Shown here: positions 46,846-62,518 of the stretch, piece by piece
How the letters are laid out: every line of letters begins with the position of its first letter
How positions within the stretch are numbered: the first letter of the stretch is position 1
Assembly (NCBI RefSeq): GCF_001677475.2
Contig: NZ_CP015229.1
Length of the DNA stretch: 64,000 bases
DNA from: Escherichia coli
GTDB lineage: Bacteria > Pseudomonadota > Gammaproteobacteria > Enterobacterales > Enterobacteriaceae
Direction: 5' to 3' (one strand)
Program-made: the position numbers and the translations under genes
Notes under the pieces: generated by a model
What the model saw: the letters and a program-made list of their open reading frames with translations, nothing else
Database searches by the model: none
Told to the model about the DNA's origin: nothing

Positions 46846-47052
46846 ATGGAACTCTACAGAGAATATCCTGCATGGCTTATCTTTTTACGCCGTACTTATG
46901 CGGTTGTAGCGGGCGTCCTGGCGCTGCCTTTCATGCTTTTCTGGAAAGACCGCGCCCGCTTTTACAGCTACCTGCATCGCGTCTGGTCGAAAACCAGCGA
47001 TAAACCGGTGTGGATGGATCAGGCCGAAAAGGCAACTGGTGATTTTTACTGA
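46846..47052 (+). CDS. ybfA: Small membrane protein YbfA
   Basis: 68 aa, starting [30 protein letters not shown] hairpin lies at 47067-47095. Confidence 0.88.
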
Positions 47053-47806
47053 TTGCCTGCGCGTTTAAGCCAGCCTCGTATCAGGGGGCTGGTTTAGGCG
47101 TTTTGAATCAACGGGTTCCATGGTGTTGTTCATTTAATCACTGTTTTAGTATCAATTTTCAATAGTATCCTTTCATAGGACTACTCTGGATGCGTTCACC
47201 TTCATTGTCGCTCTAAGCAACTAGATCCTCAGAAATCTCCAGTTAGGTTGCATCCTTCCTTACACACTTTCCTGAAACTTCAGGGTAAGGTGAGAAAGCC
47301 GCCATCACTTTTTCTTATTCCAGCATCTAAATAAATTCCGAATTTTGCTATTAATATCGCTACCGCAATAAAAACAGATAGTAAAGAGAGTAATATATAC
47401 TTTAGTGATATGTTAAGAATAATTGATTGTTAACATATCTAATGGGATAAGATGTGTTTCTGTTAATGAAAATATTCAAGATTTATAGTTGATAATTAAA
47501 ATACACTCGATATCTCAGCCCTTTCTATGCAAGATGCAATTTTATAAGCTGTCCATTTTTTATATGGAGGCGGTAGCGTGTTTGTTACTCGTGATTTTAT
47601 TGGTATGGTGAATATGTTGGGATTGTTAAATACATAACGGCATATCAGTTCCGGTCATTGTAAATATGGGTAATTGCTTAATGTTATTAGTGATTACCGT
47701 TTGAAAGATAAAGAGTGCTGTAAAGCGGTGATAGACATTACATTCATGATTAAAAAACAGAACCTGTCAATAAATAATTCATTTATTAAAAAGGACGACT
47801 TCTATT

Positions 47807-48036
47807 ATGACGGAATATTATCTCAATGAGACGGTTTGCAAATACAGAGCCAGTTTCTCCGGGGTAACGAGCAGGTGTACCAGTGTCAGGTGGCATTTGT
47901 ATTGCCGGGTGAGCGGGTCATGATGGCCTTCACCTACGCCCGAACCACACCGCTGACCCCGGCAGATATGACGCGCTGGGCTGAAATTAAAAAGAATCTG
48001 CGCTTCAGGATGCGGCAGGAAGCCGGGACGAATTAA
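47807..48036 (+). pseudogene. Eag-family (DUF1795) T6SS effector chaperone, internally deleted and frameshifted
   Basis: The ATG at 47807 encodes MTEYYLNE, a typical Eag N-terminus. It runs into another frame and stops after 38 codons. The C-terminal roughly 64 codons (QVYQCQVAFVLPGERVMMAFTYARTTPL...) are in a different frame (47836-48036). The total span of 230 bp compares with about 450 bp expected. Confidence 0.7.
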
Positions 48037-48054
48037 TCACACAGGGAACGGGAC

Positions 48055-51000
48055 ATGGAAGAGGCATTCTGGGCGGCAAGGCAGGGTGATGCCCTGCTGC
48101 ATACGTCGTTTATGGCAGATGTGCTGGGGGCAGTTGTAGAGGTTGCCGCCACAGCCCTGGTGGATGTTCTGGTTGTCGGAACCATGGCGGCGCTGGGCGG
48201 AGTTGAAGTGGCAACGCTGGGCTGCTCAACCATTTTAGCGATCGGTATAGCAACAGCGGTATTTATGTCGTATCAGGGCTGGAATGACCGAATCAGTAGG
48301 GAAAGTGAGCAACTGGCGAACTGGCTTTTCCCGCCTCAGATTGAAGGTTACATCCTCACCGGCTCTGGCGACACATGGATCAACAGCAAACCTGCCGCGC
48401 GGGCCGCGGCGACTGCGGCATCGCGGCAGGACATTGAGGCGCAGGAGGCGCAGGCGAAGGCGGAACAGGAAGAAGCGCAGCGTCAGGAGGATGCCAGAAC
48501 GTTCCTGGATGTGGCCGGGGAATATCTGGAAATGGCGGGGGCCATAGCCCTGGCGGTTAACCCGGTGACAGGGCCTGTGCTGATGTCCCGGGCGCTGCAC
48601 GACCAGCTCAGTACGGAAGAAGGGCGTTCTGAAATGGTGGATGGCGTGACACATTTTGTGTCGGAACTATGGCAGCCCACCGTGGCCAGTGCGGCCCCGG
48701 GCTCCACCCCGACCCCTGACGATAAAATCGACTGCCATAAACATCCCTCCTCACTGACGCAGTTTCTCGCACAAAAAAAAGCCGCCTTTCTGGATGACCC
48801 CCTGGGAACGGCCCTTAACCTGCTGAGTCCGGGCGGTATGCTGGAAACCGCCTTTCAGGGAGTGAATGCGGTTATTGGCAGCATCAGTAATCTGTTCAAA
48901 GGCGATGATGAACCGCCCGCAGCGGAATATATCGCGGAAGGCGCGCGGGATGTGCGTATCAACAGCCAGCCGGCGGCACGCAGCGGGGCACGCTGCACCT
49001 GCGAGGCCAGGGTGGTGAATGAGCCGGGGAACGGGGCGTTTGTGTCACCGGATGTCCGCATTGGCGGTCCGTTACTGGTGGTCAGGGATATCAGAAGCGG
49101 CAGGTCGCAGATAACCCTGGTGGCAACCGTGGCGCTGATGTTTCTTCGCCCGGGCAAAATGCTTTCTAAAATCGCCTGTTTTGCTGCCAGTGTCGGGATG
49201 GGGGTGATGACGCAGAAGGCCATCAGTGCCCTTCCGCATCCGGTCAATGCCGCCACCGGAGCCAAATATCTGGCCGATGACGATGATTTTGACTTCAGTC
49301 TGCCGGGCCACTTTCCGCTGGACTGGCAGCGCGTGTACAGCAGTCGTGACGACCGCACGGAAGGGATGTTCGGGCAGGGCTGGAGTGTAATGTATGAAGT
49401 CAGCCTCGAGCGCACGCCGGGTACTGCTGACGAAAACTGTATGACCTTTGTGTCGGGCATGGGACGACGTCTGGATATGGAGGCCGTGCTGCCGGGGAGC
49501 GGGTTTTACAGCCCCGGCGAAGGACTGGCAGTACGGCGGGGTGAGCAGGGGCACTGGCTTATCAGCAGCGATGACGGGCAGTTTTTTCTGTTTGAGGCCG
49601 ACCCGCGTCACCCGCAGCGCCAGCGGCTGAAAATGCTGGGCGACCGCAACAGCAACTGTCTGAATCTGTACTACGACGAGCTGGGGCGCATCACGCAAAT
49701 CAGCGGTGAACAGCAGCGTCCGTGCATCCGTCTGCATTATGAACTGGCGGCGCATCCCCGGCGGGTGACACAGATTTATCAGCATTTCCCTGAGATGGCT
49801 CCTTTACTGCTGCGTCGTTACCGCTATGACGAGGCCGGCGACCTGAACGGCGTGTACGACAGCACGGGGCACCTGCTGCGCGAGTTTGCTTACGACGAAA
49901 ACCACTGCATGACCCTGCACCGCCAGCCGGGCGGCGAAGGGTATTATTACCAGTGGGGCTGGTATGAAGGCCCGGATGACGCAGCGTGGCGGGTGACGGG
50001 GCACCACACGGACAGCGGTGAACAGTACCGGCTGGCGTGGAGCCTGGCGGCACGCAGGCTGTGCGTGACGGACGGGCTGGGGCGCACGCGTTATCATCAG
50101 TGGGACGCGCAAAATCAGGTGACGGCGTACCAGGACGAAGCCGGGCAGGTGACGACGTTCCGCTGGAGCGACGAAGAACGGCTGTTACTGGGAATGACCG
50201 ATGCGCAGGGCGGCAAATGGCGCTATGTGTATGACCGGCAGGGGCATATCACGGAGACGCACGACCCGCTGGGGCGGGTGGCACAGACACAGTGGCACCC
50301 GGTGTGGCACCAGCCGGAAACGGAGGTGGACGCGGCGGGGAACAGCTGGTGCTGTGAGTACGATGAACGCGGCAATCTTCTTGCGGTGACCGACCCGCTG
50401 CAGCAGAACACCCGGTATCAGTATGACCGCCACGGCCAGGTGGTGCAGATAACGGATGCGCGCGGGGGGAATAAATACCTTCAGTGGAACGAAGACGGGC
50501 AGCTCATGCGGCACACGGACTGTTCCGGCTCGCAGACGGCCTGGTTCTACGACGAACGCACGCGGCTGATACGGATGACAGACGCGCAGAGCCACAGCAC
50601 GCGCTACGGGTATGACGACAGCGGCCACCTGACGGAGGTGATACTGGCGGACGGCCGCACGGTGAATTACCAGTCGGACGCGGCGGGCAGGCTGGTGAAG
50701 TACACCAGCCCGATGGGGAGGATAACGCGCTGGCAGCGGGACGGGCAGGGCCGGGTGCGCAGCCGGACAGACGCGACGGGGCGCAGGACGGCGTTCGGGT
50801 ACGATGCCTACGGGCGTCTGGTCACGCTCACGAACGAGAACGGAGAAAGCTACCGGTTCCGCCATGACGTGCTGGACCGTCTGGCGGAGCAGATAAATCC
50901 GGACGGCTGCCGCCAGACGTACCGCTACAACGCGCTGAACGCGGTCACGGAAGTGGTGTTCACCGGGGACCGGGGCGGTGAAATCCGCCACCGGCTGGCA

Positions 51001-52737
51001 CGTGATGCGGCGGGCCGGCTCACGGCAAAGGAGACAGCCGATGGCCATACGGAATACGTCCATGATGCGGCAGACCAGCTACTGGAAATCCGCCGCCGAC
51101 GGTCGGATGCCGGGGAAACAGACGCACCGGAGATTATCCGTTTCAGTTACGACAGACTGGGGCGGATGCTGACCGAGGAGACGGCGCAGGGCGTCCTGAC
51201 CCATCAGTACGATGAACTCAGCAACCGGACAGCCACCACCTTTCCGGATGGCAGAACGCAGCGTCATCTGTACTACGGCAGCGGCCATCTCCAGCAGATA
51301 AATCTGGACCGGGAGGTCATCAGCGAGTTCACACGTGACGCCCTGCACCGGGAAGTGCTCAGAAGTCAGGGGCGACTGAGCACGCGGCAGCTTTATGACC
51401 CCGCCGGGCGGCTGAAGCGCAGGGAGACATACAGCGGGATGCGCGGGGTGGTACCGGAGACGTTCACGGACCGGCAGTACAGCTACAGCGGCGAGGATGA
51501 ATTGCTGAAGACGCGGCACAGCCGGCGGGGGGAAACGGATTACTTCTACGACCCCACGGGGCGCATCACGGCGTGCCGCTCGGAGGATGAGAGGTATCTG
51601 GCGAGCTGGCAGTACGACGCGGCGGGAAACCTGCTGGGGAGGCGCGCGGGGGAAAGGGCCACGGCAGAAAACAGCGTGGTGCCGTTCAACCGGCTGATGT
51701 CTTACCGTGGTGTGCACTACCGTTATGACGAATTTGGCCGGACGGTGGAAAAGGAGGGCCGGAGCGGCACGCAGAGTTACCGTTATGATGCGGAACACCG
51801 GATGGTGGAAGTGACGACAGCGCGGGGGACATACCGGTATGTGTACGATGCGCTGGGGAGGCGGACGGAAAAACAGCACATCAGCCCTGACGGTAAACCG
51901 TACAACCGGACGACATTTTTATGGGACGGAATGCGGCTGGCGCAGGAGAGCAGGCCGGAGGGAATAAGCAGCCTGTATATCTACAGCGACCCGGGGAGTT
52001 ATGAACCGCTGGCGCGGGTGGATAAGGCGGGCAAAGAGGGCCCGAACCGGATACTGTATTTTCACACGGATGTGAACGGTGCGCCGGAAGAGATGACGGA
52101 CAGTGACGGGAAAATCGTGTGGGAGACGGGGTATCAGGTCTGGGGTAACACGATACAGGAGAAGGACCACGGCGGGGTGGAGCAGAACCTGCGCTACCAG
52201 GGACAGTACCTCGACAGGGAAACGGGGCTGCATTACAATCTGCACAGGTACTATGATCCGGATGTCGGGCGGTTCATGGTAACGGACCCGATAGGGCTGG
52301 CGGGGGGACTGAATCTTTACCAATACTCACCGAATCCAATAAGTTGGATCGACCCGCTGGGATTAACAGGGGAGTGGGTTAATCCCAAAGATATTAATTT
52401 TTCTCAAAGAACAATATCACCTCATGATTATGCCGATATTATGCGTAATGGTGGTTGGGATTGGGACAGGTCTCCATTAAGAGTAATTGATATTGATGGG
52501 CAATTAGTTTCTTATGATAATAGGCGATTAGACGCAGCTCTAGAGGCCGGATTAGATAAGGTTAAAGTCATTAGAGTTGACCCTAATGCTCCTCATCCTG
52601 ACTCATCTACTGGAAAAACATGGTTACAAAAATTCCGAGAGAGATTTAGAGATCGAAGAAATATAAAGGCCGGTGGAATAGTACCAGATAAAGGATTAAA
52701 TTCTCGACCGGAAAGAACATCAAGAGGTTGCAAATGA
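48055..52737 (+). CDS. Full-length prePAAR/PAAR-Rhs (YD-repeat) polymorphic toxin with C-terminal ParB/Srx-like toxin tip
   Basis: 1560 aa. The AARQGDALLH prePAAR motif lies at 48073-48102. Two hydrophobic TM regions flank PAAR-like segments. A long GC-rich YD-repeat core follows. The core-end motif PNPISWIDPLGL has DPLGL at 52351-52365. An AT-rich 123-aa tip follows. Confidence 0.93.
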   Translation: MEEAFWAARQGDALLHTSFMADVLGAVVEVAATALVDVLVVGTMAALGGVEVATLGCSTILAIGIATAVFMSYQGWNDRISRESEQLANWLFPPQIEGYILTGSGDTWINSKPAARAAATAASRQDIEAQEAQAKAEQEEAQRQEDARTFLDVAGEYLEMAGAIALAVNPVTGPVLMSRALHDQLSTEEGRSEMVDGVTHFVSELWQPTVASAAPGSTPTPDDKIDCHKHPSSLTQFLAQKKAAFLDDPLGTALNLLSPGGMLETAFQGVNAVIGSISNLFKGDDEPPAAEYIAEGARDVRINSQPAARSGARCTCEARVVNEPGNGAFVSPDVRIGGPLLVVRDIRSGRSQITLVATVALMFLRPGKMLSKIACFAASVGMGVMTQKAISALPHPVNAATGAKYLADDDDFDFSLPGHFPLDWQRVYSSRDDRTEGMFGQGWSVMYEVSLERTPGTADENCMTFVSGMGRRLDMEAVLPGSGFYSPGEGLAVRRGEQGHWLISSDDGQFFLFEADPRHPQRQRLKMLGDRNSNCLNLYYDELGRITQISGEQQRPCIRLHYELAAHPRRVTQIYQHFPEMAPLLLRRYRYDEAGDLNGVYDSTGHLLREFAYDENHCMTLHRQPGGEGYYYQWGWYEGPDDAAWRVTGHHTDSGEQYRLAWSLAARRLCVTDGLGRTRYHQWDAQNQVTAYQDEAGQVTTFRWSDEERLLLGMTDAQGGKWRYVYDRQGHITETHDPLGRVAQTQWHPVWHQPETEVDAAGNSWCCEYDERGNLLAVTDPLQQNTRYQYDRHGQVVQITDARGGNKYLQWNEDGQLMRHTDCSGSQTAWFYDERTRLIRMTDAQSHSTRYGYDDSGHLTEVILADGRTVNYQSDAAGRLVKYTSPMGRITRWQRDGQGRVRSRTDATGRRTAFGYDAYGRLVTLTNENGESYRFRHDVLDRLAEQINPDGCRQTYRYNALNAVTEVVFTGDRGGEIRHRLARDAAGRLTAKETADGHTEYVHDAADQLLEIRRRRSDAGETDAPEIIRFSYDRLGRMLTEETAQGVLTHQYDELSNRTATTFPDGRTQRHLYYGSGHLQQINLDREVISEFTRDALHREVLRSQGRLSTRQLYDPAGRLKRRETYSGMRGVVPETFTDRQYSYSGEDELLKTRHSRRGETDYFYDPTGRITACRSEDERYLASWQYDAAGNLLGRRAGERATAENSVVPFNRLMSYRGVHYRYDEFGRTVEKEGRSGTQSYRYDAEHRMVEVTTARGTYRYVYDALGRRTEKQHISPDGKPYNRTTFLWDGMRLAQESRPEGISSLYIYSDPGSYEPLARVDKAGKEGPNRILYFHTDVNGAPEEMTDSDGKIVWETGYQVWGNTIQEKDHGGVEQNLRYQGQYLDRETGLHYNLHRYYDPDVGRFMVTDPIGLAGGLNLYQYSPNPISWIDPLGLTGEWVNPKDINFSQRTISPHDYADIMRNGGWDWDRSPLRVIDIDGQLVSYDNRRLDAALEAGLDKVKVIRVDPNAPHPDSSTGKTWLQKFRERFRDRRNIKAGGIVPDKGLNSRPERTSRGCK
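50912..52299 (+). repeat. 1388-bp direct repeat, copy A (rhs core 3' part)
   Basis: Aligns without indels to 60705-62092 at a constant offset of 9793 nt. Only four amino-acid differences separate the translated copies. Confidence 0.9.
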
Positions 52738-53168
52738 AAAATATTATTCAGTTATGGGAAGATGGTTTATTACCGATAAAAGATGCTATTTACTTTTCTA
52801 ACGGTGAATCTTTCCTTTGTAAAATAACATCTTACCCTACTCCTTGTATTGAGAAAAATGGTGAGTTTGATTTCTCTGCCTTTTATGAAAAAAATAAAGA
52901 TGAAGTTACTGATATTGATAAGTCTAGAGAAGTTAAATTAGCGAATAATTGCTATTGTTGCATTGGAGAAGGTAGTTATGGTTCTGAAGGATTTATCGCA
53001 TATCTCGATGAAAATAAAAACTTAGTTTGGGTTCTTTATTCCGAAGAATCTAATCCATTTATTAATATAACTGAATATACATCTGATATTATTATAGTAG
53101 AATCAAGTTCTAATATTAGACTAAGAATAAATATAAACAATCCAGTGGATTTAGAATTGGCATTTTAA
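52734..53168 (+). CDS. Cognate Rhs immunity protein (RhsI), family unknown
   Basis: 144 aa. Its ATG overlaps the rhs stop (ATGA at 52734-52737) and an SD aagagg lies upstream. AT-rich like the toxin tip. Confidence 0.75.
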   Translation: MKNIIQLWEDGLLPIKDAIYFSNGESFLCKITSYPTPCIEKNGEFDFSAFYEKNKDEVTDIDKSREVKLANNCYCCIGEGSYGSEGFIAYLDENKNLVWVLYSEESNPFINITEYTSDIIIVESSSNIRLRININNPVDLELAF

Positions 53169-53170
53169 AT

Positions 53171-53208
53171 AAAAAGCCGGGTGAAATTAAATCTTCCCGG
53201 CTTTTTTA
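53171..53208. terminator. Cassette hairpin H1 (bidirectional terminator shared by rhsI and the symE-like gene)
   Basis: aaaaaGCCGGGtgaaattaaatcttCCCGGCtttttt. Confidence 0.75.
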
Positions 53209-53212
53209 TTAT

Positions 53213-53542
53213 TTAACTCTCGTTCAGCACACTAAACATCCCGTTCCGCATCCCCTTAACCACCTGTTTAACCTGATAAAGTTCTTCCCGCAGCTCCTGC
53301 ACCTCGTCACTGTCAGCGATGATGGTCAGGTACCCCTCCGAAATCTTCACCGTGACACCCCGCCCGGTATCAAATCCCGCCTCAGCCAGCCAGTCGCCCT
53401 TGAGGTGCAGGCTGGGATGTTGTGAATAATACCGGGCTATACCTGTTGTGCGGTCCTGGTGGCGGGTTCTGACATAGCCGACTTTATAGCGGCGCTGGGT
53501 TTTGGAAATGGTGACTTCTGGCGTAATATCGTGTTCAGCCAT
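53213..53542 (-). CDS. SymE-family (AbrB/SpoVT-fold, type I toxin-like) protein, intact copy
   Basis: 109 aa. The segment HLKGDWLAEAGFDTGRGVTVKISEGYLTII aligns with remembered K-12 SymE [32 protein letters not shown]. An SD aggag lies 7 nt before the ATG. Confidence 0.75.
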   Translation of the reverse strand: MAEHDITPEVTISKTQRRYKVGYVRTRHQDRTTGIARYYSQHPSLHLKGDWLAEAGFDTGRGVTVKISEGYLTIIADSDEVQELREELYQVKQVVKGMRNGMFSVLNES

Positions 53543-53616
53543 GATTAACTACTCCTGTTAGTTGCTTGTGGTGAGCGGCTGTTACAGGCGGCAACCTGTA
53601 GCAGTCGCGTTAAATA

Positions 53617-53760
53617 TCAACGCATTACCTTCATTACCTGCTTCATCTTCTCCTGGGTGATCGCCATATCCAGAATACGGCAGATCACTTCCTGATCGTC
53701 TGCTTTAAGCTCATCAACCTGCTTACACAGTTCTTTTAACCGCTTGTTTTTTATATCGAA
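53617..53760 (-). pseudogene. 3' fragment of an unknown gene upstream of symE-like copy 1, apparently cut by the GC-rich fragment
   Basis: The minus frame reads ..DIKNKRLKELCKQVDELKADDQEVICRILDMAITQEKMKQVMKVMR* (stop at 53617-53619). There is no start codon. AT-rich sequence ends abruptly at about 53760. Confidence 0.3.
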
Positions 53761-54861
53761 AACATCGCGGAAGAAGAAGGTGTGCGCCAGGCGGCCTACG
53801 CGCTCAAGCTGTTGCAGTCGGACGGGGAACTGACCATCGCCAGTACGGGCAAGGATGACGCCAGCGGTAACCTGGTCACCAAACAGTATACGGTGAAAGG
53901 CCCGGTGATGCTGATGCTGACCACCACCGCCATCGATGTTGACGAGGAGTTACTCAACCGCTGTCTGGTGCTGACGGTGAACGAATCGCGGGAACAGACG
54001 GAAGCTATCCACGCGGCGCAGCGTTACGCGCAGACGCTGGAAGGACTGCTGGCGGCTAACGAAAAAAGTTACATCACGCAGCTTCACCAGAACGCGCAGC
54101 GGCTGCTGCGCCCGCTCAACGTGGTGAACCCGTTCGCCTCGCAGCTCACGTTCATGAGCGACAAAACCCGCACCCGGCGCGACCACATGAAATACCTGAC
54201 GCTGATCCAGGCGATCGCCCTGCTGCACCAGTACCAGCGGGAGATCAAGCGCGTGGAGCATCGCGGGCAGGTGGTGGAGTACATCGAGGTCACGCGGGAG
54301 GACATCGCCCTGGCGAACCGCCTGGCACATGAAATACTCGGGCGCACCCTGGATGAAATGCCGCCGCAGACGCGCAAACTGTTAACCCTGATCCAGCAAT
54401 GGGTGAGCGACAGCGGTCAGGCGCGTGAGGCGATGCGGTTCACCCGTAAACAACTGCGTGACGCGGTACAGTGGGGCGACACGCAGCTCAAGATCCACCT
54501 GGCGCGGCTGGTCGAAATGGAATATCTGCTGGTCCACCGTCTCGGGCTGACGTTCTGCTATGAACTGCTGTTCGACGGGGACGGCAGCGCAGACACCGCG
54601 CACCTGTGCGGGCTGATCGACGTACCGGAACCACCGTATGACGTCGCCCGGTCGGGGGAAACGGTGAAGCAGCTGGCCTCTGGTCGGGCAGTGGTCGGCG
54701 GTCAGTCGGGTAAGGAAAAAACCGCCTCAGACCAGACACCACGAGGCTTACAGGCCGGAGCGGTCGGGGCAGAGGAAAAAGCCCTGTTCCGGCAGAACGC
54801 AAAAAAACCGTCCCGCAATCATACTGCGGCCCGTCCGGGCCGGAGCAACACGGAAGCATAA
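53761..54861 (+). pseudogene. 5'-truncated gene of a GC-rich mobile element (large conserved protein, function not assignable here)
   Basis: The ORF reading ..IAEEEGVRQAAYALKLLQSDGELTIASTGKD... has no plausible native start. Composition changes sharply at about 53760. It is followed by a tyrosine recombinase gene. Confidence 0.55.
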
Positions 54862-54895
54862 GTACGACTTCATCCGGTCGGGGCAACGGCTGCAA

Positions 54896-54939
54896 TAGTC
54901 GGCCCCTGGTCGGCAGTCAGTCGGCGGGTAGTCGGGGTG
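54896..54939. repeat. Four tandem 11-bp iteron-like repeats containing GTCGG
   Basis: tagtcggcccc / tggtcggcagt / cagtcggcggg / tagtcggggtg. A fifth GTCGG lies at 54877-54881. The repeats lie between the truncated gene and the recombinase gene. Confidence 0.7.
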
Positions 54940-55065
54940 CGTAAAACCCCCGCAGGCCGCGCCCGGCAAGGTTCAGGCCATGAAGCGGTCGGCCTGCCTG
55001 AAAATCACTGTTCCATCCTCTGTTCTTCTCTCTGTCGTACCGTAATCTCAATCAGGACAATCATC

Positions 55066-56095
55066 ATGACAAAACCCATCCCTCCGGGGCCGGAGGAACT
55101 TTACCTCAGCCGCCAGAACCTGACGCAGCGCCAGTATGTGGTGGTGTGGCTGGAATACCTGACGGCACAGAACTACAGCGCGATCAGCGTAAGCGACTAT
55201 CGCGAACGGGTGTTACCGTTCGTGACATGGTGTGAGGAGCGCGGGCTGATGTACGCGCCGCAGGTCAGCCAGCCGCAGCTTGAAAGCTATCAGCGCCACC
55301 TTCACGGCTACCGTAAGGCGGACGGCCATCCGCTGGCGGTCAGCGGTCAGGTGGGCCGGATAAGCGCGATAAAAATCTTTTACCGCTGGCTGCTGAAGCG
55401 GCATGTGATCCTGTACAACCCCGCCGATCTGCTGGAACTGCCAAAGCCGGACAAACGGCTTCCGGCGCAGGTGTTCAGTAAGGGCGAGACGCGGCAGGTG
55501 TTACAGAGCCTTGATATCAACACGCCCGTTGGCCTGCGCAACCGGACAATCCTTGAGGTGCTGTGGAGTACCGGGATCAGGCGGATGGAGCTGGCCAGCC
55601 TGATGTTGTGGGATGTTGACACCGGGCGCGGTGTGGTTAACGTGCGGCAGGGTAAGGGGCGTAAGGATCGGGTGGTTCCGGTGGGCCATGTGGCGCTGGG
55701 ATGGCTGGCAAGACGTGCGACCACAGATGACGCGCCAGCGCGACAGTGGTCATCTGTTCGTGACGAAATACGGCAGCGGGATGAAACGCAACACGCTGAC
55801 GGCGATGGCAGGCACCGCGATCCGGGAAACGGCACGGATCGACAAACCGGGCGCGTGCCATATCTTCCGGCACTCGATGGCGACGCAGATGCTGGACAAT
55901 GGCGCAGACACGCGGCATATCCAGGCGATCCTCGGCCATGAGAAGCTGGAGACGACGCAGATCTACACGAAGGTGGCCATAAAGCCGTTGCAGAAGGTTC
56001 ATGCGCGGACGCACCCGGCAGAGAAGCGGCGAAGGGAAAAGCGCGTGCAGCAGCCGGACGAGGCCACCGTATCGCCGGACAGCCTGAAAAGTTAG
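55066..56095 (+). pseudogene. Tyrosine recombinase (XerC/D-like integrase), frameshifted
   Basis: MTKPIPPG...TGIRRMELASL...[12 protein letters not shown] is in one frame. After about 55710 the homology continues in the +1 frame ([36 protein letters not shown]). The catalytic Arg is therefore separated from the HxxR and Tyr residues. Confidence 0.8.
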
Positions 56096-56260
56096 GTGGC
56101 GATCCCTGTAAGGCCGTGGGGTGCGGTGCAGGGCAGACAACCGCCTTCCCTGGCGGTTGACTGCCCCCTGCCAGCGGCGTGCGCGGGGGTAAATGCCGTC
56201 CGCCCCGTGGAGGCAGCCGCGCCCCATGCGACCATGCAGCACGGGGCAAACGTCATTCAA

Positions 56261-56352
56261 CATAATGCGGATTATGCGCACTCTCGCCGGTCGGCAATGA
56301 CGGCGAACCCGATCCGCTGTGCGCGGCTCGTGTTCGCACAATCCGCATTATG
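56261..56352. repeat. Imperfect 20-bp inverted repeat with a 52-bp spacer
   Basis: cataatgcggattatgcgca (56261-56280) against the reverse complement of ttcgcacaatccgcattatg (56333-56352). 18/20 positions match, including 13 contiguous. Confidence 0.7.
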
Positions 56353-57005
56353 TCTGACGCCCCCGCGTTCAGCCCCGTGGTCCGTGCAGCGCAAAGCTTC
56401 GCTGGCGCTCCGCTCTGCTGCCGGGTGCGGTGTTCTTCTGTGGCCCCGCAGTCGCCGCCATCCCTGGCGGCTCCGGTGCCGTTCTGCGGCAGCGTCATCG
56501 TGTGGCAGTCAGTCAGAAAAGGGTGTCGGCCTGGCGGCCTCCGCTTGTAAGGGCTTTATGCCCGCCCGGCGTCGTCTGGCTGCGGCGGCTCGTGCCGCGC
56601 AAAAAGGCCGCGCGTCACTCGTTCCCGCCTCGCCAGCTTCCGCTGCCCGCCCCGGTCAGGTGTGGTCATGCAAAGGCAACCCCCGGTCAGGCAGCGGTGC
56701 CACAGAGCGCCGTTCCGTCGCTTGCGGACTCTCTGCCGCCCGCACCCGCAGACCCCGCGCCGTGGCCCCGCCATGCCGCCGGAGGCGTCCTGGCGGCCCC
56801 CCGTCACGGGGTGCCGGAAACGGACTTAGTGGAAAGCGGAATGACAGGCGGTGGTGGTGGTGCTATGGTGAGCGGGCGTGAAAATGCGCGTCGGGAAAGT
56901 CGGGTTAACGTGCTGTTAAATAAGTAAAAGGTGATAGCCGGGAAGCCAGAAACGGCGCGGGCGGTAGCGTGTTAAAAAGTGTGACCTGCACCGGATCGTT
57001 CCGAT

Positions 57006-57515
57006 GACCCGATAGGACTGCGGGGTGGATTAAATCTCTATCAATATGCGCCGAATCCGTTGAGCTATATTGATCCTCTTGGCCTTTGTAAATTAAGGGG
57101 AAGTAATGGGCGCTTCAGAAGTGCTCAGAATATTCAGGAAGAAATAGGCGGACTACCTAATTTTTCAGGGAAGACTCCAGGGCAAATACGACAAACTTTG
57201 CGTAATCGAGTTTATTCGTCGGTACAAGCGCATAGTGGTGGAGAGGTCTGGACAAAAGCATTACCTGACGGAAATACTGTTGCTGTGAGAATTGACCCGG
57301 CAAATCCTCGCTCACCTTCACATTATGCTGATGCTGTGCCTCATGCTCATATTGAAACAGTTCCAACGTCCAGTGTTTCTAATGGGAATTATCGCCCACG
57401 AGACGTGACTGGCAGGCATACTGCCACTGGTGGGATTTCTGACCGAGGAACGAATCCGAATCATAATGCTGATGTTCACATTCCAATGTCTCCGGGACGA
57501 TTCCCATATAATTAA
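57006..57515 (+). CDS. Orphan Rhs C-terminal toxin 1 (core stub + CT domain of unknown family); no own start codon
   Basis: [27 protein letters not shown] is followed by a 143-aa AT-rich CT. The frame opens just after a TGA, with only an internal TTG at 57060. Confidence 0.75.
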   Translation, partial: DPIGLRGGLNLYQYAPNPLSYIDPLGLCKLRGSNGRFRSAQNIQEEIGGLPNFSGKTPGQIRQTLRNRVYSSVQAHSGGEVWTKALPDGNTVAVRIDPANPRSPSHYADAVPHAHIETVPTSSVSNGNYRPRDVTGRHTATGGISDRGTNPNHNADVHIPMSPGRFPYN

Positions 57516-57526
57516 TGTGAGGTTTT

Positions 57527-57790
57527 ATGAATATCCGAAATCAATATAATGAAGCCTTAAATAAATTAGAAGTTGATGTTAATGATGGTTTAAGAGATTT
57601 AATAAACATATATTGTGTAGCTATTGATTCTTTTGAAAATGATATCGTTGACTCGATTGCTTTATACGTGATTGATATGGGAAATAAAGATACTTGTCGA
57701 TATCTACAAGAAATATTATCAGAGAATGAAGATCCTTATTTAGTAAAAGAATTTAATGCATGGATGAAAGAAATTAAGAAAAAATATTAA
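57527..57790 (+). CDS. Orphan immunity protein 1
   Basis: 87 aa. It begins 11 nt after the toxin stop with an SD gagg. AT-rich. Confidence 0.7.
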   Translation: MNIRNQYNEALNKLEVDVNDGLRDLINIYCVAIDSFENDIVDSIALYVIDMGNKDTCRYLQEILSENEDPYLVKEFNAWMKEIKKKY

Positions 57791-57793
57791 AAT

Positions 57794-57831
57794 AAAAGCC
57801 GGGACGGTTATTAAATCTTCCCGGCTTTTTT
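57794..57831. terminator. Cassette hairpin H2
   Basis: aaaaGCCGGGacggttattaaatcttCCCGGCtttttt. Confidence 0.75.
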
Positions 57832-57836
57832 ATTAC

Positions 57837-58070
57837 TTAACTTTCGTTCAGCACACTAAACATCCCGTCACGCATTCCCTTAACCGCCTGTTTAACCAGA
57901 TAAAGTTCCCTGCGCAGTTCCTGTACTTCGTTGTTATCCGCAAGCAGGATCAGACATCCTTCCGAGATCTTCACGGTGACGCCCGTGCCGATCTCAAATC
58001 CCGCTTCTCTCAGCCATTTTGCGCTGATTTTGATTACCGGCGTGTCGCTGCGGTTGGGCAGATAACCCAC
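57837..58070 (-). CDS. SymE-family ORF, copy 2, lacking a canonical start upstream of the conserved N-terminal segment
   Basis: 77 aa from an in-frame GTG. The frame stays open upstream to 58154 and encodes the conserved ISKTQRHCTVGY segment, but contains no ATG/GTG/TTG or SD there. Confidence 0.5.
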   Translation of the reverse strand: MGYLPNRSDTPVIKISAKWLREAGFEIGTGVTVKISEGCLILLADNNEVQELRRELYLVKQAVKGMRDGMFSVLNES

Positions 58071-58376
58071 GGTACAGTGGCGCTGTGTTTTGGAAATGAT
58101 ATTCTTATATTTAATCTGCTGATTAGATAGTAAAATTAACTTCGTGCAGATAGCTTACTTTATCAGGGTGCGGCGGTAGTGTATGAACTATGACGTGATG
58201 GTTTTAGTGATTTATATACGAAAATGACAGTACGATCCGGACTTCGAATAGATTGCGCGATTTGACCCGATAGGGCTGGCGGGGGGATTAAATCTCTATC
58301 AATATGCGCCTAATCCGTTAAGTTATATTGATCCACTTGGATTGTGTCCTAAAACTGACTTTAAATGGGGAAATCC

Positions 58377-59667
58377 CAGGGAAAGATCACGTAATGCTGC
58401 TTTTTTGTACTAAACAATTCGCATTTTATGTTTAAAAATTGAGATATTCCTCATTACATAAAGCTGTTTTTTATTGCTTATACATGATCAAATACTCCTT
58501 ACATAATTAAGGAGAACAAAATGGAACTTAAAAAATTGATGGAACATATTTCTATTATCCCCGATTACAGACAAGCCTGGAAAGTGGAACATAAATTATC
58601 GGATATTCTACTGTTGACTATTTGTGCCGTTATTTCGGGTGCAGAAGGCTGGGAAGATATAGAGGATTTTGGGGAAACACATCTCGATTTTTTGAAGCAA
58701 TATGGTGATTTTGATAATGGTATTCCTGTTCACGATACCATTGCCAGAGTTGTATCCTGTATCAGTCCTGCAAAATTTCACGAGTGCTTTATTAACTGGA
58801 TGCGTGACTGCCATTCTTCAGATGATAAAGACGTCATCGCAATTGATGGAAAAACGCTCCGGCATTCTTATGACAAGAGTCGCCGCAGGGGAGCGATTCA
58901 TGTCATTAGTGCGTTCTCAACAATGCACAGTCTGGTCATCGGACAGATCAGGACGGATGAGAAATCAAATGAAATTACAGCTATCCCTGAACTTCTTAAC
59001 ATGCTGGATATTAAAGGAAAAATCATCACAACTGATGCGATGGGTTGCCAGAAAGATATTGCAGAGAAGATACAAAAACAGGGAGGTGATTATTTATTCG
59101 CTGTAAAAGGAAACCAGGGGCGGCTAAATAAAGCCTTTGAGGAAAAATTCCCACTGAAAGAATTAAATAATCCAGAGCATGACAGTTACGCAATTAGTGA
59201 AAAGAGTCACGGCAGAGAAGAAATCCGTCTTCACATTGTTTGCGATGTCCCTGATGAACTTATTGATTTCACGTTTGAATGGAAAGGACTGAAGAAATTA
59301 TGCGTGGCAGTCTCCTTTCGGTCAATAATAGCAGAACAAAAGAAAGAGCCAGAAATGACGGTCAGATATTATATCAGTTCTGCTGATTTAACCGCAGAGA
59401 AGTTCGCCACAGCAATCCGAAACCACTGGCACGTGGAGAATAAGCTGCACTGGCGTCTGGACGTGGTAATGAATGAAGACGACTGCAAAATAAGAAGAGG
59501 AAACGCCGCAGAATTATTTTCAGGGATACGGCACATCGCTATTAATATTTTAACGAATGATAAGGTATTCAAGGCAGGGTTAAGACGTAAGATGCGAAAA
59601 GCAGCCATGGACAGAAACTATCTCGCGTCAGTCCTTGCGGGGAGCGGGCTTTCGTAATCTTGCCCTG
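58377..59667 (+). mobile_element. ISAs1-family element (Rhs-associated H-repeat), 1291 bp
   Basis: Terminal IRs are CAGGGAAAGATCACGTAA and TTACGAAAGCCC..(rc CAGGGCAAGATTACGAAA). A perfect 10-bp target duplication GGGGAAATCC lies at 58367-58376 and 59668-59677. Confidence 0.9.
58521..59657 (+). CDS. ISAs1-family (H-repeat-associated) transposase
   Basis: 378 aa, starting [51 protein letters not shown]. Matches remembered YbfL/YhhI-type proteins. Confidence 0.92.
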
Positions 59668-60010
59668 GGGGAAATCCAAAAAGTAAGCCTACATACGGTC
59701 ACACATTTTCTGAACACGGACAGAAAATGAAACCAAGTCAGTTAATTGATCGTGCCAGAAATAAAGGTCATCAAGTAGGACAATATCTCGATGATAATTC
59801 TGCTGCTGATTTTATTGCTTCTGTTGCCAAAAAAGGTCCGGGTGTGCATGATGTGCCATTGCCTACAAATATAAAAGGTCGAGGTTATTTGCCTGATGGG
59901 ACAGAGGTCGTTCCAGATATGGCAAGGGTTGTTGTAAAACCCGATGGTTCTGTACGAACATCGTTCCCATTCAATTCATCACACACCAACTAAAGTAATG
60001 AAGGGTATAT

Positions 60011-60391
60011 ATGAATGAAATAGATAAGATCTGTAGTGAACTTGGCGTACCAGTTGGTGATAAGTTTACACAAGATTGGGCTTATGAACTGCCTGAAAAA
60101 TATCGAACTAAAGAGTGGCTAAGTAAATACATTGCTGCATACTTAAACAATGGCTACTCCCAAAAAGGGAAGACTGAATTAATGACTTTAGCCCTTGATG
60201 TCTGTAATGATTTATTATCTTCTGGAGTACCCCCATCAGATGAGGTTATTATAAAAGTACTCAACGCCCTGCGTGATAATTACAAAAATCATATAGATCT
60301 TATTAATTATTGGTCCTTGGATGATGAATCTTTAGATGACAGTTTTGCATTAACTCCTGAAATAAGGGAGCTAAAAAGAAGATTGATTTAG
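60011..60391 (+). CDS. Orphan immunity protein 2
   Basis: 126 aa. It begins 17 nt after the toxin-2 stop with an SD aaggg. Confidence 0.7.
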   Translation: MNEIDKICSELGVPVGDKFTQDWAYELPEKYRTKEWLSKYIAAYLNNGYSQKGKTELMTLALDVCNDLLSSGVPPSDEVIIKVLNALRDNYKNHIDLINYWSLDDESLDDSFALTPEIRELKRRLI

Positions 60392-60413
60392 GATTATAAT
60401 ATTATTAAGTTAT

Positions 60414-60447
60414 AAAAAGCCGGGAATATAATCTTCCCGGCTTTTTT
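60414..60447. terminator. Cassette hairpin H3
   Basis: aaaaaGCCGGGaatataatcttCCCGGCtttttt. Confidence 0.75.
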
Positions 60448-60452
60448 ATTAT

Positions 60453-60677
60453 TTAACTCTCGTTCAGCACACTAAACATCCCGTCACGCATCCCCTTAAC
60501 CGCCTGTTTAACCTGATAAAGTTCCCTGCGCAGTTCCTGTACTTCGTTGTTATCCGCGAGCAGGATCAGGCAACCTTCCGAGATCTTCACGGTAACGCCC
60601 GTACCGATCTCAAATCCCGCTTCTCTCAGCCATTTGGCGCTGATTTTGATCACCGGCGTGTCGCTGCGGTTGGGCAG
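60453..60677 (-). pseudogene. SymE-family gene, copy 3, 5'-truncated at the junction with an rhs core fragment
   Basis: Identical to copy 2 apart from one residue, back to ..LPNRSDTP. Homology stops at about 60677, where rhs-core-like sequence begins. Confidence 0.75.
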
Positions 60678-60704
60678 ATGCTGCGCTGGCAGCACGACGG
60701 CAGA

Positions 60705-62518
60705 GCCAGACGTACCGTTACAACGCGCTGAACGCGGTCACGGAAGTGGTGTTCACCGGGGACCGGGGCGGTGAAATCCGCCACCGGCTGGCACGTGATG
60801 CGGCGGGCCGGCTCACGGCAAAGGAGACAGCCGATAGCCGAACGGAATACGTCCATGATGCGGCAGACCAGCTACTGGAAATCCGCCGCCGACGGTCGGA
60901 TGCCGGGGAAATGGACGCACCGGAGATTATCCGTTTCAGTTACGACAGACTGGGGCGGATGCTGACTGAGGAGACGGCGCAGGGCGTCCTGACCCATCAG
61001 TACGATGAACTCAGCAACCGGACAGCCACCACCTTTCCGGACGGCAGAACGCAGCGTCATCTGTACTACGGCAGCGGCCATCTCCAGCAGATAAATCTGG
61101 ACCGGGAGGTCATCAGCGAGTTCACACGTGACGCCCTGCACCGGGAAGTGCTCAGAAGTCAGGGGCGACTGAGCACGCGGCAGCTTTATGACCCCGCCGG
61201 GCGGCTGAAGCGCAGGGAGACATACAGCGGGATGCGCGGGGTGGTACCGGAGACGTTCACGGACCGGCAGTACAGCTACAGCGGCGAGGATGAACTGCTG
61301 AAGACGCGGCACAGCCGGCGGGGGGAAACGGATTACTTCTACGACCCCACGGGGCGCATCACGGCGTGCCGCTCGGAGGATGAGGGGTATCTGGCGAGCT
61401 GGCAGTACGACGCGGCGGGAAACCTGCTGGGGAGGCGCGCGGGGGAAAGGGCCACGGCAGAAAACAGCGTGGTGCCGTTCAACCGGCTGATGTCTTACCG
61501 TGGTGTGCACTACCGTTATGACGAATTTGGCCGGACGGTGGAAAAGGAGGGCCGGAGCGGCACGCAGAGTTACCGTTATGATGCGGAACACCGGATGGTG
61601 GAAGTGACGACAGCGCGGGGGACATACCGGTATGTGTACGATGCGCTGGGGAGGCGGACGGAAAAACAGCACATCAGCCCTGACGGTAAAGCGTACAACC
61701 GGACGACATTTTTATGGGACGGAATGCGGCTGGCGCAGGAGAGCAGGCCGGAGGGAATAAGTAGCCTGTATATCTACAGCGACCCGGGGAGTTATGAACC
61801 GCTGGCGCGGGTGGATAAGGCGGGCAAAGAGGGCCCGAACCGGATACTGTATTTTCACACGGATGTGAACGGTGCGCCGGAAGAGATGACGGACAGTGAC
61901 GGGAAAATCGTGTGGGAGACGGGGTATCAGGTCTGGGGTAACACGATACAGGAGAAGGACCACGGCGGGGTGGAGCAGAACCTGCGCTACCAGGGACAGT
62001 ACCTCGACAGGGAAACGGGGCTGCACTACAATCTGCACAGGTACTATGATCCGGATGTCGGGCGGTTCATGGTAACGGACCCGATAGGGCTGAGAGGCGG
62101 ATTAAACTTATACCAATACGCGCCTAATCCGTTAAGCTGGATCGATCCTCTTGGATTAAGTGCCGCCTCTGATTTACCTCAATTAAAAGGAAGATCCCCA
62201 GGGGCAATAGGTTCTATTCTTACTGATAATGGATTCAATTTAGATAAACAAACAAGTACCGGGAATCAGACTTGGAGCCACGCCGATGGTTCTAAAGTTC
62301 GTGTCGATCCCTATGGAAACCAAAGTATGACTATGAAAAACGGTGATCCATTACCGAAATCAGGAGCTAACGCACATGTGCATAAATATGATCCCGGTGA
62401 GATACCGCTGAATGACAGAGGCATTCCGAGTACAAATCCAAATGAAACACATATAGGGATCAGGAATCCAAATGATTATTCTACAAAACGAGGGCGGGCC
62501 CATGGGTGCGGCGTATAA
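60705..62518 (+). CDS. Orphan Rhs fragment 3: 1.39-kb core 3' segment (direct repeat copy B, 60705-62092) plus a distinct CT toxin
   Basis: The translation is near-identical to main Rhs residues from QTYRYNALNAVTEVVFT to VTDPIGL. It then diverges: [22 protein letters not shown] followed by a 119-aa CT from 62159. The 5' side (60678-60704) is a scrambled YD fragment in another frame. The only start is an internal GTG at 60746. Confidence 0.85.

Follow-up and report, generated by a model that had tools for sequence, protein, structure and literature searches.

An Escherichia coli Rhs effector gene beside a deleted eag gene: a chaperone pseudogene whose function may be supplied in trans

Introduction

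The locus described here raises the question of how an Rhs effector of a type VI secretion system (T6SS) can be kept as an open gene when the chaperone gene beside it has been destroyed, and whether such an effector could still be loaded and delivered. It lies in a 64,000-nucleotide segment of an Escherichia coli-type chromosome (RefSeq assembly GCF_001677475.2, contig NZ_CP015229.1), referred to throughout as the window, in which the kdp operon is followed by ybfA and then by the rhs locus. This rhs locus occupies the site beside ybfA that K-12 uses for rhsC. Its first gene is a deletion pseudogene of eag, which encodes a chaperone, and its second gene encodes an intact Rhs protein with an N-terminal prePAAR motif.

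The original prediction, made from the letters of the window, held that effectors of this class are reported to need a dedicated Eag encoded immediately upstream, and its lead reading was that the effector may be undeliverable. The requirement for an adjacent gene was overstated, as the Eag of a prePAAR effector merely has to be encoded in the same genome and not next door (Ahmad et al. 2020, PMC7773334). In this report the deletion is defined, its spread among complete E. coli genomes is determined, and the readings of the chaperone loss are weighed. We consider, with moderate confidence, that supply of both the chaperone and the VgrG spike in trans is the best reading for the strain of the window.

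Results

Window positions 47807-48036 are a deletion pseudogene of an EagR-type chaperone gene (Pfam DcrB/DUF1795). Two intact loci served for comparison, 14EC033, in which eag occupies the same position beside ybfA, and 24A16CRGN010, in which it follows a vgrG; both have the full 453-bp gene. Alignment with these intact loci demonstrated that the deletion removed codons 11-84 and that 230 bp of the gene remain (Table 1). The residues left at the 5' end, MTEYYLNETV, are identical to the first 10 residues of intact 150-residue Eag proteins, and reading on from the ATG at 47807 leads, out of frame, to a stop codon at 47923. The 66 residues encoded in another frame (47836-48036) equal residues 85-150 of intact Eag; the remnant agrees with intact Eag proteins, including the one encoded in the island of strain MEI003 described below, at 64 of the 65 residues that can be compared. 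The alignment thus returned the N-terminal stub and the C-terminal remnant in another frame that the original prediction had described; the junction, which had been placed near 47832, was nearly right, with the exact site at 47836/47837, 4-5 bp away. The idea that homologous loci have a naturally short functional open reading frame (ORF) at this position did not hold, as the full-length gene is found at the same locus elsewhere. The ends of the deletion have no convincing microhomology. Between the stop codon of the remnant at 48036 and the rhs start at 48055 there is a gap of 18 bp, which is the same adjacency to a prePAAR effector as at the intact loci. In related genomes, the PGAP/RefSeq label for the remnant is "DcrB-related protein, incomplete, missing N-terminus", a partial pseudogene.

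A hidden Markov model search with the 66-residue ORF gave a match to Pfam DcrB/DUF1795 (PF08786) with E=1.8e-5 and 25.3 bits against a cut-off of 27.2, covering profile positions 77-126 of 127, and the intact paralogous Eag of the relatives scored 68.2 bits over profile positions 11-126. Judged by these matches, the remnant is a fragment of a DUF1795 family member and not itself a member, and the relatedness to DUF1795 means that the pseudogene claim stands. In the N-terminal half of EagT6, the residues named as contacts of the effector are I22, I24, S37, V39, S41, Q58, A62 and L66, and those of its C-terminal half are L98, Q102, F104 and I113; in solved Eag-effector complexes both halves of the protein supply the helix-gripping surface (PMC7773334). 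The remnant keeps only the C-terminal group (4 of 12 residues) when mapped by position, which is not a residue-by-residue alignment, and by the same mapping it is not a complete Eag of about 150 residues with the N-terminal palm and groove. The deletion would therefore, by position, take out most of the "claw" residues that bind the transmembrane helix. Because the N-terminal half is missing by position, we infer that the remnant cannot work as a chaperone.

The gene that follows is uninterrupted. By the definitions of Ahmad et al. (2020, PMC7773334) for the prePAAR motif, AARxxDxxxH, and for class I effectors, the product of 48055-52737 is, from its sequence, a class I prePAAR effector: it has the motif at its N-terminus, a single transmembrane region before the PAAR, and Rhs repeats and core with a predicted C-terminal toxin. 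The perfect prePAAR motif AARQGDALLH noted earlier at 48073-48102 was confirmed as residues 7-16 of the 1560-residue ORF. The hydrophobic and PAAR-like segments said to follow it were found as one strongly hydrophobic region at residues 13-73, in which the 19-residue Kyte-Doolittle mean peaks at 2.32, and a PAAR at residues 291-321; a second hydrophobic segment at residues 160-178 is barely at the Kyte-Doolittle threshold. A match to 7Q97 (E=6e-56), an Rhs family protein of solved structure, covers residues 287-481, and Pfam detected DUF6531, 15 RHS repeats and the RHS core, after which come the DPIGL/DPLGL motifs and a variable tail of 123 residues. Up to about residue 1400, the protein is 98-100% identical to the Rhs of strain AR_0077 and to the island paralogues. 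The first 100 residues, with the transmembrane region, are identical in loci L001 and L002 and in the CT265 island, and 99 of the 100 are identical in 24A16CRGN010. A second transmembrane allele, 57-59% identical over the first 100 residues, is found at L003 (14EC033), L006 and L008; the Eag proteins beside the two alleles are 97-99% identical to each other, and the deletion allele occurs with both.

An 81-bp junction probe spanning the deletion was searched in 5,426 complete E. coli genomes. The probe was covered fully in 96 of these, and a further 111 matched its right half only, that is, they carry only intact eag genes. Five independent loci, among them L001, L002, L006 and L007, share the junction with slightly different junction codons (the variants among carriers are GAGACGGTTTGC, GAGGCGGTTTGG and GAGGAAGTTTGG), as do Shigella flexneri SFBU1023 and strain ECMA0423. 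Because the same junction is present in independent assemblies, the deletion is not a sequencing artefact, and the sharing points to one old, inherited event that later diverged or was spread by recombination. In species-representative genomes, the exact junction pattern had no match, and the pattern of the prePAAR region was found at three loci, two of which have the deletion. At 7 of 11 eag-deleted loci the Rhs gene is intact, namely in the window, AR_0077, R32_14_1F, A37, CT265, APEC E14033 and MEI003. In SFBU1023 and ECMA0423, the eag deletion is combined with an Rhs ORF that ends after 935 residues.

Most carriers of the deletion also have an intact eag. The deleted 223-bp segment is present in 204 genomes and the eag family in any form in 207-212; it follows that at most 3-8 genomes are without an intact copy, and that at least 88 of the 96 deletion carriers keep one. 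With this result the undeliverable effector of the original prediction becomes the less likely reading for the allele, and its alternative of a paralogous Eag elsewhere is the one that the evidence favours for the allele. A second place was visible in 27 of 28 sampled carriers, and in the three relatives inspected the intact eag is part of an island, flanked by ansP and yddH, with the genes vgrG, eag and rhs. The order in the islands of CT265 and MEI003 is two small ORFs, vgrG, eag (150 residues) and rhs. The first of these ORFs (L005 16821-17351; L028 5821-6351; 176 residues) is annotated as "type IV secretion protein Rhs" in some records; it was considered as an Hcp and rejected, as comparison with three Hcp proteins showed no similarity and Pfam gave no match.

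The Rhs proteins of the two sites have a common N-terminus. The island Rhs of CT265 is identical to the window Rhs at 446 of 448 N-terminal residues, including all of the first 100, which contain the prePAAR motif and the transmembrane region. In MEI003, eag is intact only at the island and Rhs is intact both at the island and at the ybfA locus; its two Rhs proteins are 100% identical over the first 1000 residues and have different toxins beyond, a pattern that indicates gene conversion between the paralogues. Given the shared N-terminus, one Eag and one VgrG should fit both proteins. AR_0077, the best match to the window locus (99.3-99.6% identity), has an intact Rhs at the ybfA locus and a second matching place in its genome.

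A candidate for the delivering machine was found in the relatives. In AR_0077 a complete T6SS cluster at aspV ends with a VgrG to which the island VgrG is 76.6% identical; with the VgrG of the Sakai T6SS-2, the island protein shares 32.6% identity. The aspV cluster has Tae4/Tai4 genes and a close orthologue (E=4e-67) of SciW, the Eag of Salmonella SPI-6, and for this reason it is called SPI-6-like. The intact family Eag is itself only distantly related to SciW (E about 2e-3), and its identity to the AR_0077 orthologue of SciW is 23.5%. The tssBC genes of the SPI-6-like T6SS are present in 117 of the 5,426 genomes and T6SS-2 in 2,280. T6SS-2 was considered as the delivering system and is the less likely partner, with a VgrG just 32.6% identical to that of the island. 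MEI003 combines the SPI-6-like T6SS (tssBC), the island with intact eag and Rhs, and an eag-deleted ybfA locus with intact Rhs.

Within the window itself, tblastn with 22 T6SS proteins, representing two T6SS types, both VgrG types and Eag, matched the eag remnant alone. There is thus no tss or vgrG gene and no second eag in the 64 kb, in agreement with the earlier observation that T6SS structural genes and vgrG are lacking in the window and that ybfA lies upstream. The next gene upstream of the remnant is ybfA, which is annotated as such at all related E. coli loci.

Table 1. Features of the rhs locus and its surroundings in the 64-kb window
Feature	Position	Strand	Description
ybfA (DUF2517)	46846..47052	+	Pfam PF10725, E=5.5e-34; conserved chromosomal gene, left flank of the rhs locus
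eag remnant, 5' stub	47807..47836	+	ATG and codons 1-10 (MTEYYLNETV); ribosome-binding region AAAAAGGACGAC upstream
Deletion junction	47836..47837	+	223 bp missing, nucleotides 31-253 of the 453-bp eag; frameshift
eag remnant, 3' part	47837..48036	+	Codons 85-150 and stop; frame differs from that of the ATG
Class I prePAAR Rhs effector gene, intact	48055..52737	+	1560 residues, single ORF without stops; Pfam PAAR, DUF6531, RHS
prePAAR motif AARQGDALLH	48073..48102	+	Residues 7-16; perfect AARxxDxxxH
N-terminal transmembrane region, expected Eag-binding segment	48091..48273	+	Residues 13-73; Kyte-Doolittle
PAAR motif region	48925..49017	+	Residues 291-321; Pfam PF05488, 33.8 bits, cut-off 27
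Variable C-terminal toxin domain	52366..52734	+	Residues 1438-1560 (123 residues), after the DPIGL...DPLGL cleavage-region motifs
Candidate immunity gene	52734..53168	+	144 residues; overlaps the rhs stop codon
symE-like type I toxin gene	53213..53542	-	Pfam SymE_toxin, E=6.2e-20; closes the rhs module
Orphan rhs C-terminal fragment	60746..62518	+	RHS repeats, core and another C-terminal domain; Pfam RHS_repeat and RHS

The toxin domain (residues 1438-1560) has no Pfam match, the best trace being a sub-threshold Ntox47 (E=0.13), and it is only 13-50% identical among Rhs proteins that are otherwise near-identical. The candidate immunity protein likewise has no Pfam match. An identical 144-residue protein is encoded elsewhere immediately behind Rhs C-termini and, as an orphan, in further rhs arrays. 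In L020-L022 and L027, from other assemblies, it is present and its toxin absent, at the end of the rhs array where yafV lies, the position where the aspV T6SS cluster of AR_0077 ends. Since the immunity protein is found without the toxin at other rhs sites, the toxin-immunity module circulates between rhs sites. A symE-like gene is present at the same position in L003 (14EC033), L008 and L018. Downstream of the rhs module, positions 53782-59657 are a broken mobile element, with an ORF of 359 residues that matches a "DNA primase" frameshifted in related loci, two overlapping ORFs (54937-55941 and 55613-56095) into which a tyrosine recombinase has been split, and a transposase of the ISAs1 family (58521-59657), beyond which lies the orphan rhs fragment.

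The flanking core DNA of the window is at best 97.8-98.1% identical to any of the 5,426 complete genomes, and its strain seems to come from a poorly sampled E. coli lineage. Against AR_0077, the rhs segment is 99-100% identical and the flanking core DNA 96-99%, and the rhs locus looks as if it has been exchanged or homogenised. More closely defined, the stretch of ybfA, eag remnant and rhs (47000-50900) has 99-100% identity to AR_0077, and the core genes of window positions 1-46800 have at most 97.8-98.1%. An exact look-up of the Rhs protein gave no match. Two draft contigs reached through the immunity protein, of GCA_031341795.3 (9,792 bp) and GCA_033692315.1 (6,921 bp), are 100% identical to the window within 51545-61336 and are probably of the same lineage.

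Discussion

In the reading that we prefer, the local eag would be redundant, with a second Rhs encoded between ansP and yddH together with VgrG and an intact Eag. Both Rhs proteins would have their transmembrane region bound and stabilised by the Eag of the island, and its VgrG would mount either of them, with their different toxins, on the spike of the SPI-6-like T6SS encoded at aspV. The local eag would be dispensable because the island Eag could chaperone both Rhs proteins and the island VgrG could carry either. Where the T6SS or the island has been lost, the same Rhs gene would be an undeliverable relic. The Eag in the same genome that class I effectors need is present in at least 88 of the 96 genomes with this allele, and by gene content AR_0077 and MEI003 have the VgrG and the T6SS that match the family. 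In E. coli, delivery of Rhs-CT is reported to need the vgrGO1 and eagR genes upstream of rhs-ct (Ma et al. 2017b, as summarised in PMC6730261). A wider proposal, which is plausible but which we hold tentatively, is that one ansP-yddH pair of Eag and VgrG routinely serves at least two Rhs proteins encoded more than 1 Mb apart, with the loading regions kept identical by gene conversion, and that a chaperone gene is thereby dispensable at the second locus.

Several points weigh against supply in trans. Ahmad et al. reported high specificity between Eag and effector (PMC7773334), and the identity of the transmembrane region matters here because that study stresses effector-specific chaperones; the use of the island Eag in trans would rest on this sequence identity. 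Only 2 of 28 sampled deletion carriers, compared with at least 22 of 32 sampled intact-only genomes, are among the SPI-6-like T6SS genomes listed, a comparison that draws on 88 of the 117 T6SS-positive genomes and scores only the SPI-6-like type. Fisher's exact test gives p of about 9e-7 for this contrast; the value ignores relatedness, and many of the carriers are poultry isolates that may be one clone. In many backgrounds, then, the deletion allele accompanies a system undergoing loss. CT265 lacks a T6SS at aspV, and the Rhs of its island (L005 20442-25100) is frameshifted at the DPIGLAGG motif, just ahead of the toxin, which continues in another frame; the frameshift reflects either true decay or a mistake of the assembly within a run of G. 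At 4 of the 11 eag-deleted loci (2014C-3338, 14EC020, S. flexneri SFBU1023 and ECMA0423), the Rhs gene is frameshifted or truncated. A promoter scan of 47040-48120 returned a single weak match (47750-47778) that is no better than chance, and fewer matches than in shuffled sequence. Finally, the window covers 64 kb, from which the island and T6SS status of the rest of the genome is not visible, and the closest complete genome, at just about 98% in flanking core genes, is no near-clone.

Much of this evidence would also suit a relic in decay, in which the T6SS, the island or both are absent from this strain and the eag deletion is the first visible step of loss, the Rhs ORF being open either because too little time has passed or because it was repaired by gene conversion from a paralogue. 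The scarcity of the SPI-6-like T6SS among the listed carriers, the state of CT265 and the four broken Rhs genes all argue for it, and we regard it as a serious possibility, albeit a less probable one than supply in trans. Against it stand a 4.7-kb rhs ORF that does not contain a single stop and the retention of the matching immunity gene. At least 11 deletion carriers, including the closest matches AR_0077 and MEI003, have the SPI-6-like T6SS, which is the only type that the lists cover. The toxin modules of the carriers differ as well, so that either C-terminal replacement has continued or the allele has moved between backgrounds.

The role of recombination scaffold and immunity reservoir, which the original prediction had also raised, agrees with the data and could hold alongside either supply in trans or decay. 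It holds that the rhs core recombines with its paralogues and that the immunity genes guard against related toxins of neighbours. The MEI003 paralogues with 100% identity over 1000 residues, the rhs segment that is closer to AR_0077 than its flanks are, the orphan rhs fragment at 60746-62518, and the orphan copies of the window immunity gene in rhs arrays at aspV in other strains are all in line with such a role. It leaves unexplained why an intact loading region of prePAAR, transmembrane domain and PAAR has been retained together with a full toxin, and it is unlikely to be the explanation of this locus. Less probable by far is that the 66-residue ORF is translated and works as a shortened chaperone. 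Such an ORF does exist, with a TTG start created at the junction, and its sequence is conserved among carriers, but it covers only the end of the DUF1795 profile at a score under the Pfam cut-off and by position is without the palm and most of the groove residues. In addition, no ribosome-binding site can be recognised in the sequence before the TTG, the junction codons vary among carriers, and PGAP calls a pseudogene.

If supply in trans is true, then about 100 sequenced E. coli strains are a natural experiment in which an Eag-dependent effector is accompanied by a dead chaperone gene of its own. The island copy would serve two toxins, which bears on the number of effectors that can be loaded per Eag/VgrG pair and on how rhs paralogues stay compatible. 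The 97-99% identical Eag proteins beside transmembrane alleles that are 57-59% identical would, if both are served, suggest that Eag recognition is broader than the strict "cognate" specificity reported. Genes of this kind would be overlooked or wrongly assessed in effector inventories for which a neighbouring eag is a condition. If the locus is instead a relic, the deletion is simply a dated marker that some lineages, poultry-associated E. coli and Shigella among them, have lost the T6SS. In either case, the components and rules are already known, and the locus represents ordinary gene decay and redundancy in a known system. The families of all the parts are known and the pseudogene is flagged in public annotation. 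Literature searches combining ybfA with Rhs and T6SS, and EagR with pseudogene, found no description of the eag deletion allele. The new findings are modest and concern how widely the allele occurs, the identical paralogue with which it is almost always paired, and its association with an absent SPI-6-like T6SS. The literature supports the logic of supply in trans in general.

The closest known systems are SciW-Rhs1 of Salmonella SPI-6 and EagR1-RhsA of Pseudomonas protegens (PMC7773334), whose effectors have the same order of AARxxDxxxH, one transmembrane region, PAAR, Rhs cage and C-terminal toxin. They also resemble the window in having a DUF1795 gene directly upstream with a short gap, and a SPI-6-like VgrG is associated with the family. 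Unlike in these systems, the adjacent chaperone gene of the window is a deletion pseudogene and no vgrG is adjacent; the intact family Eag is only distantly related to SciW in sequence. A pairing at a distance is known from S. flexneri, in which SF0266 co-purified with SF3490, a protein with a distant locus tag (Ahmad et al. 2020, PMC7773334). This is similar to the proposed arrangement, in that a prePAAR effector is paired with a presumed DUF1795 protein encoded far off; it differs from the window in that SF0266 is a split effector at a different locus. The ybfA locus of S. flexneri itself has the deletion allele, followed by a truncated Rhs.

Within E. coli, the vgrGO1-eagR-rhs-ct islands (Ma et al. 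2017b, as summarised in PMC6730261 and PMC7216683) are orphan modules outside the main T6SS cluster whose delivery is reported to require vgrG as well as eagR, and the ansP-yddH island of the relatives has the same architecture. The window locus differs from them in having neither a vgrG nor a working eagR. The E. coli cases reported depended on T6SS-2, whereas the VgrG considered here resembles that of the SPI-6-like cluster.

The "neighbourless" or orphan Rhs proteins of E. coli (Rhs-Nb; K-12 RhsA-D type) are similar to that of the window in that their genes occupy a chromosomal rhs site and have neither a vgrG nor a chaperone gene beside them, the factors presumably being encoded elsewhere. 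The K-12 RhsA-D-type proteins begin with PAAR, are not known to have a prePAAR motif or transmembrane region, and would thus need no Eag. The window Rhs, unlike proteins of this type, has an Eag-dependent N-terminus.

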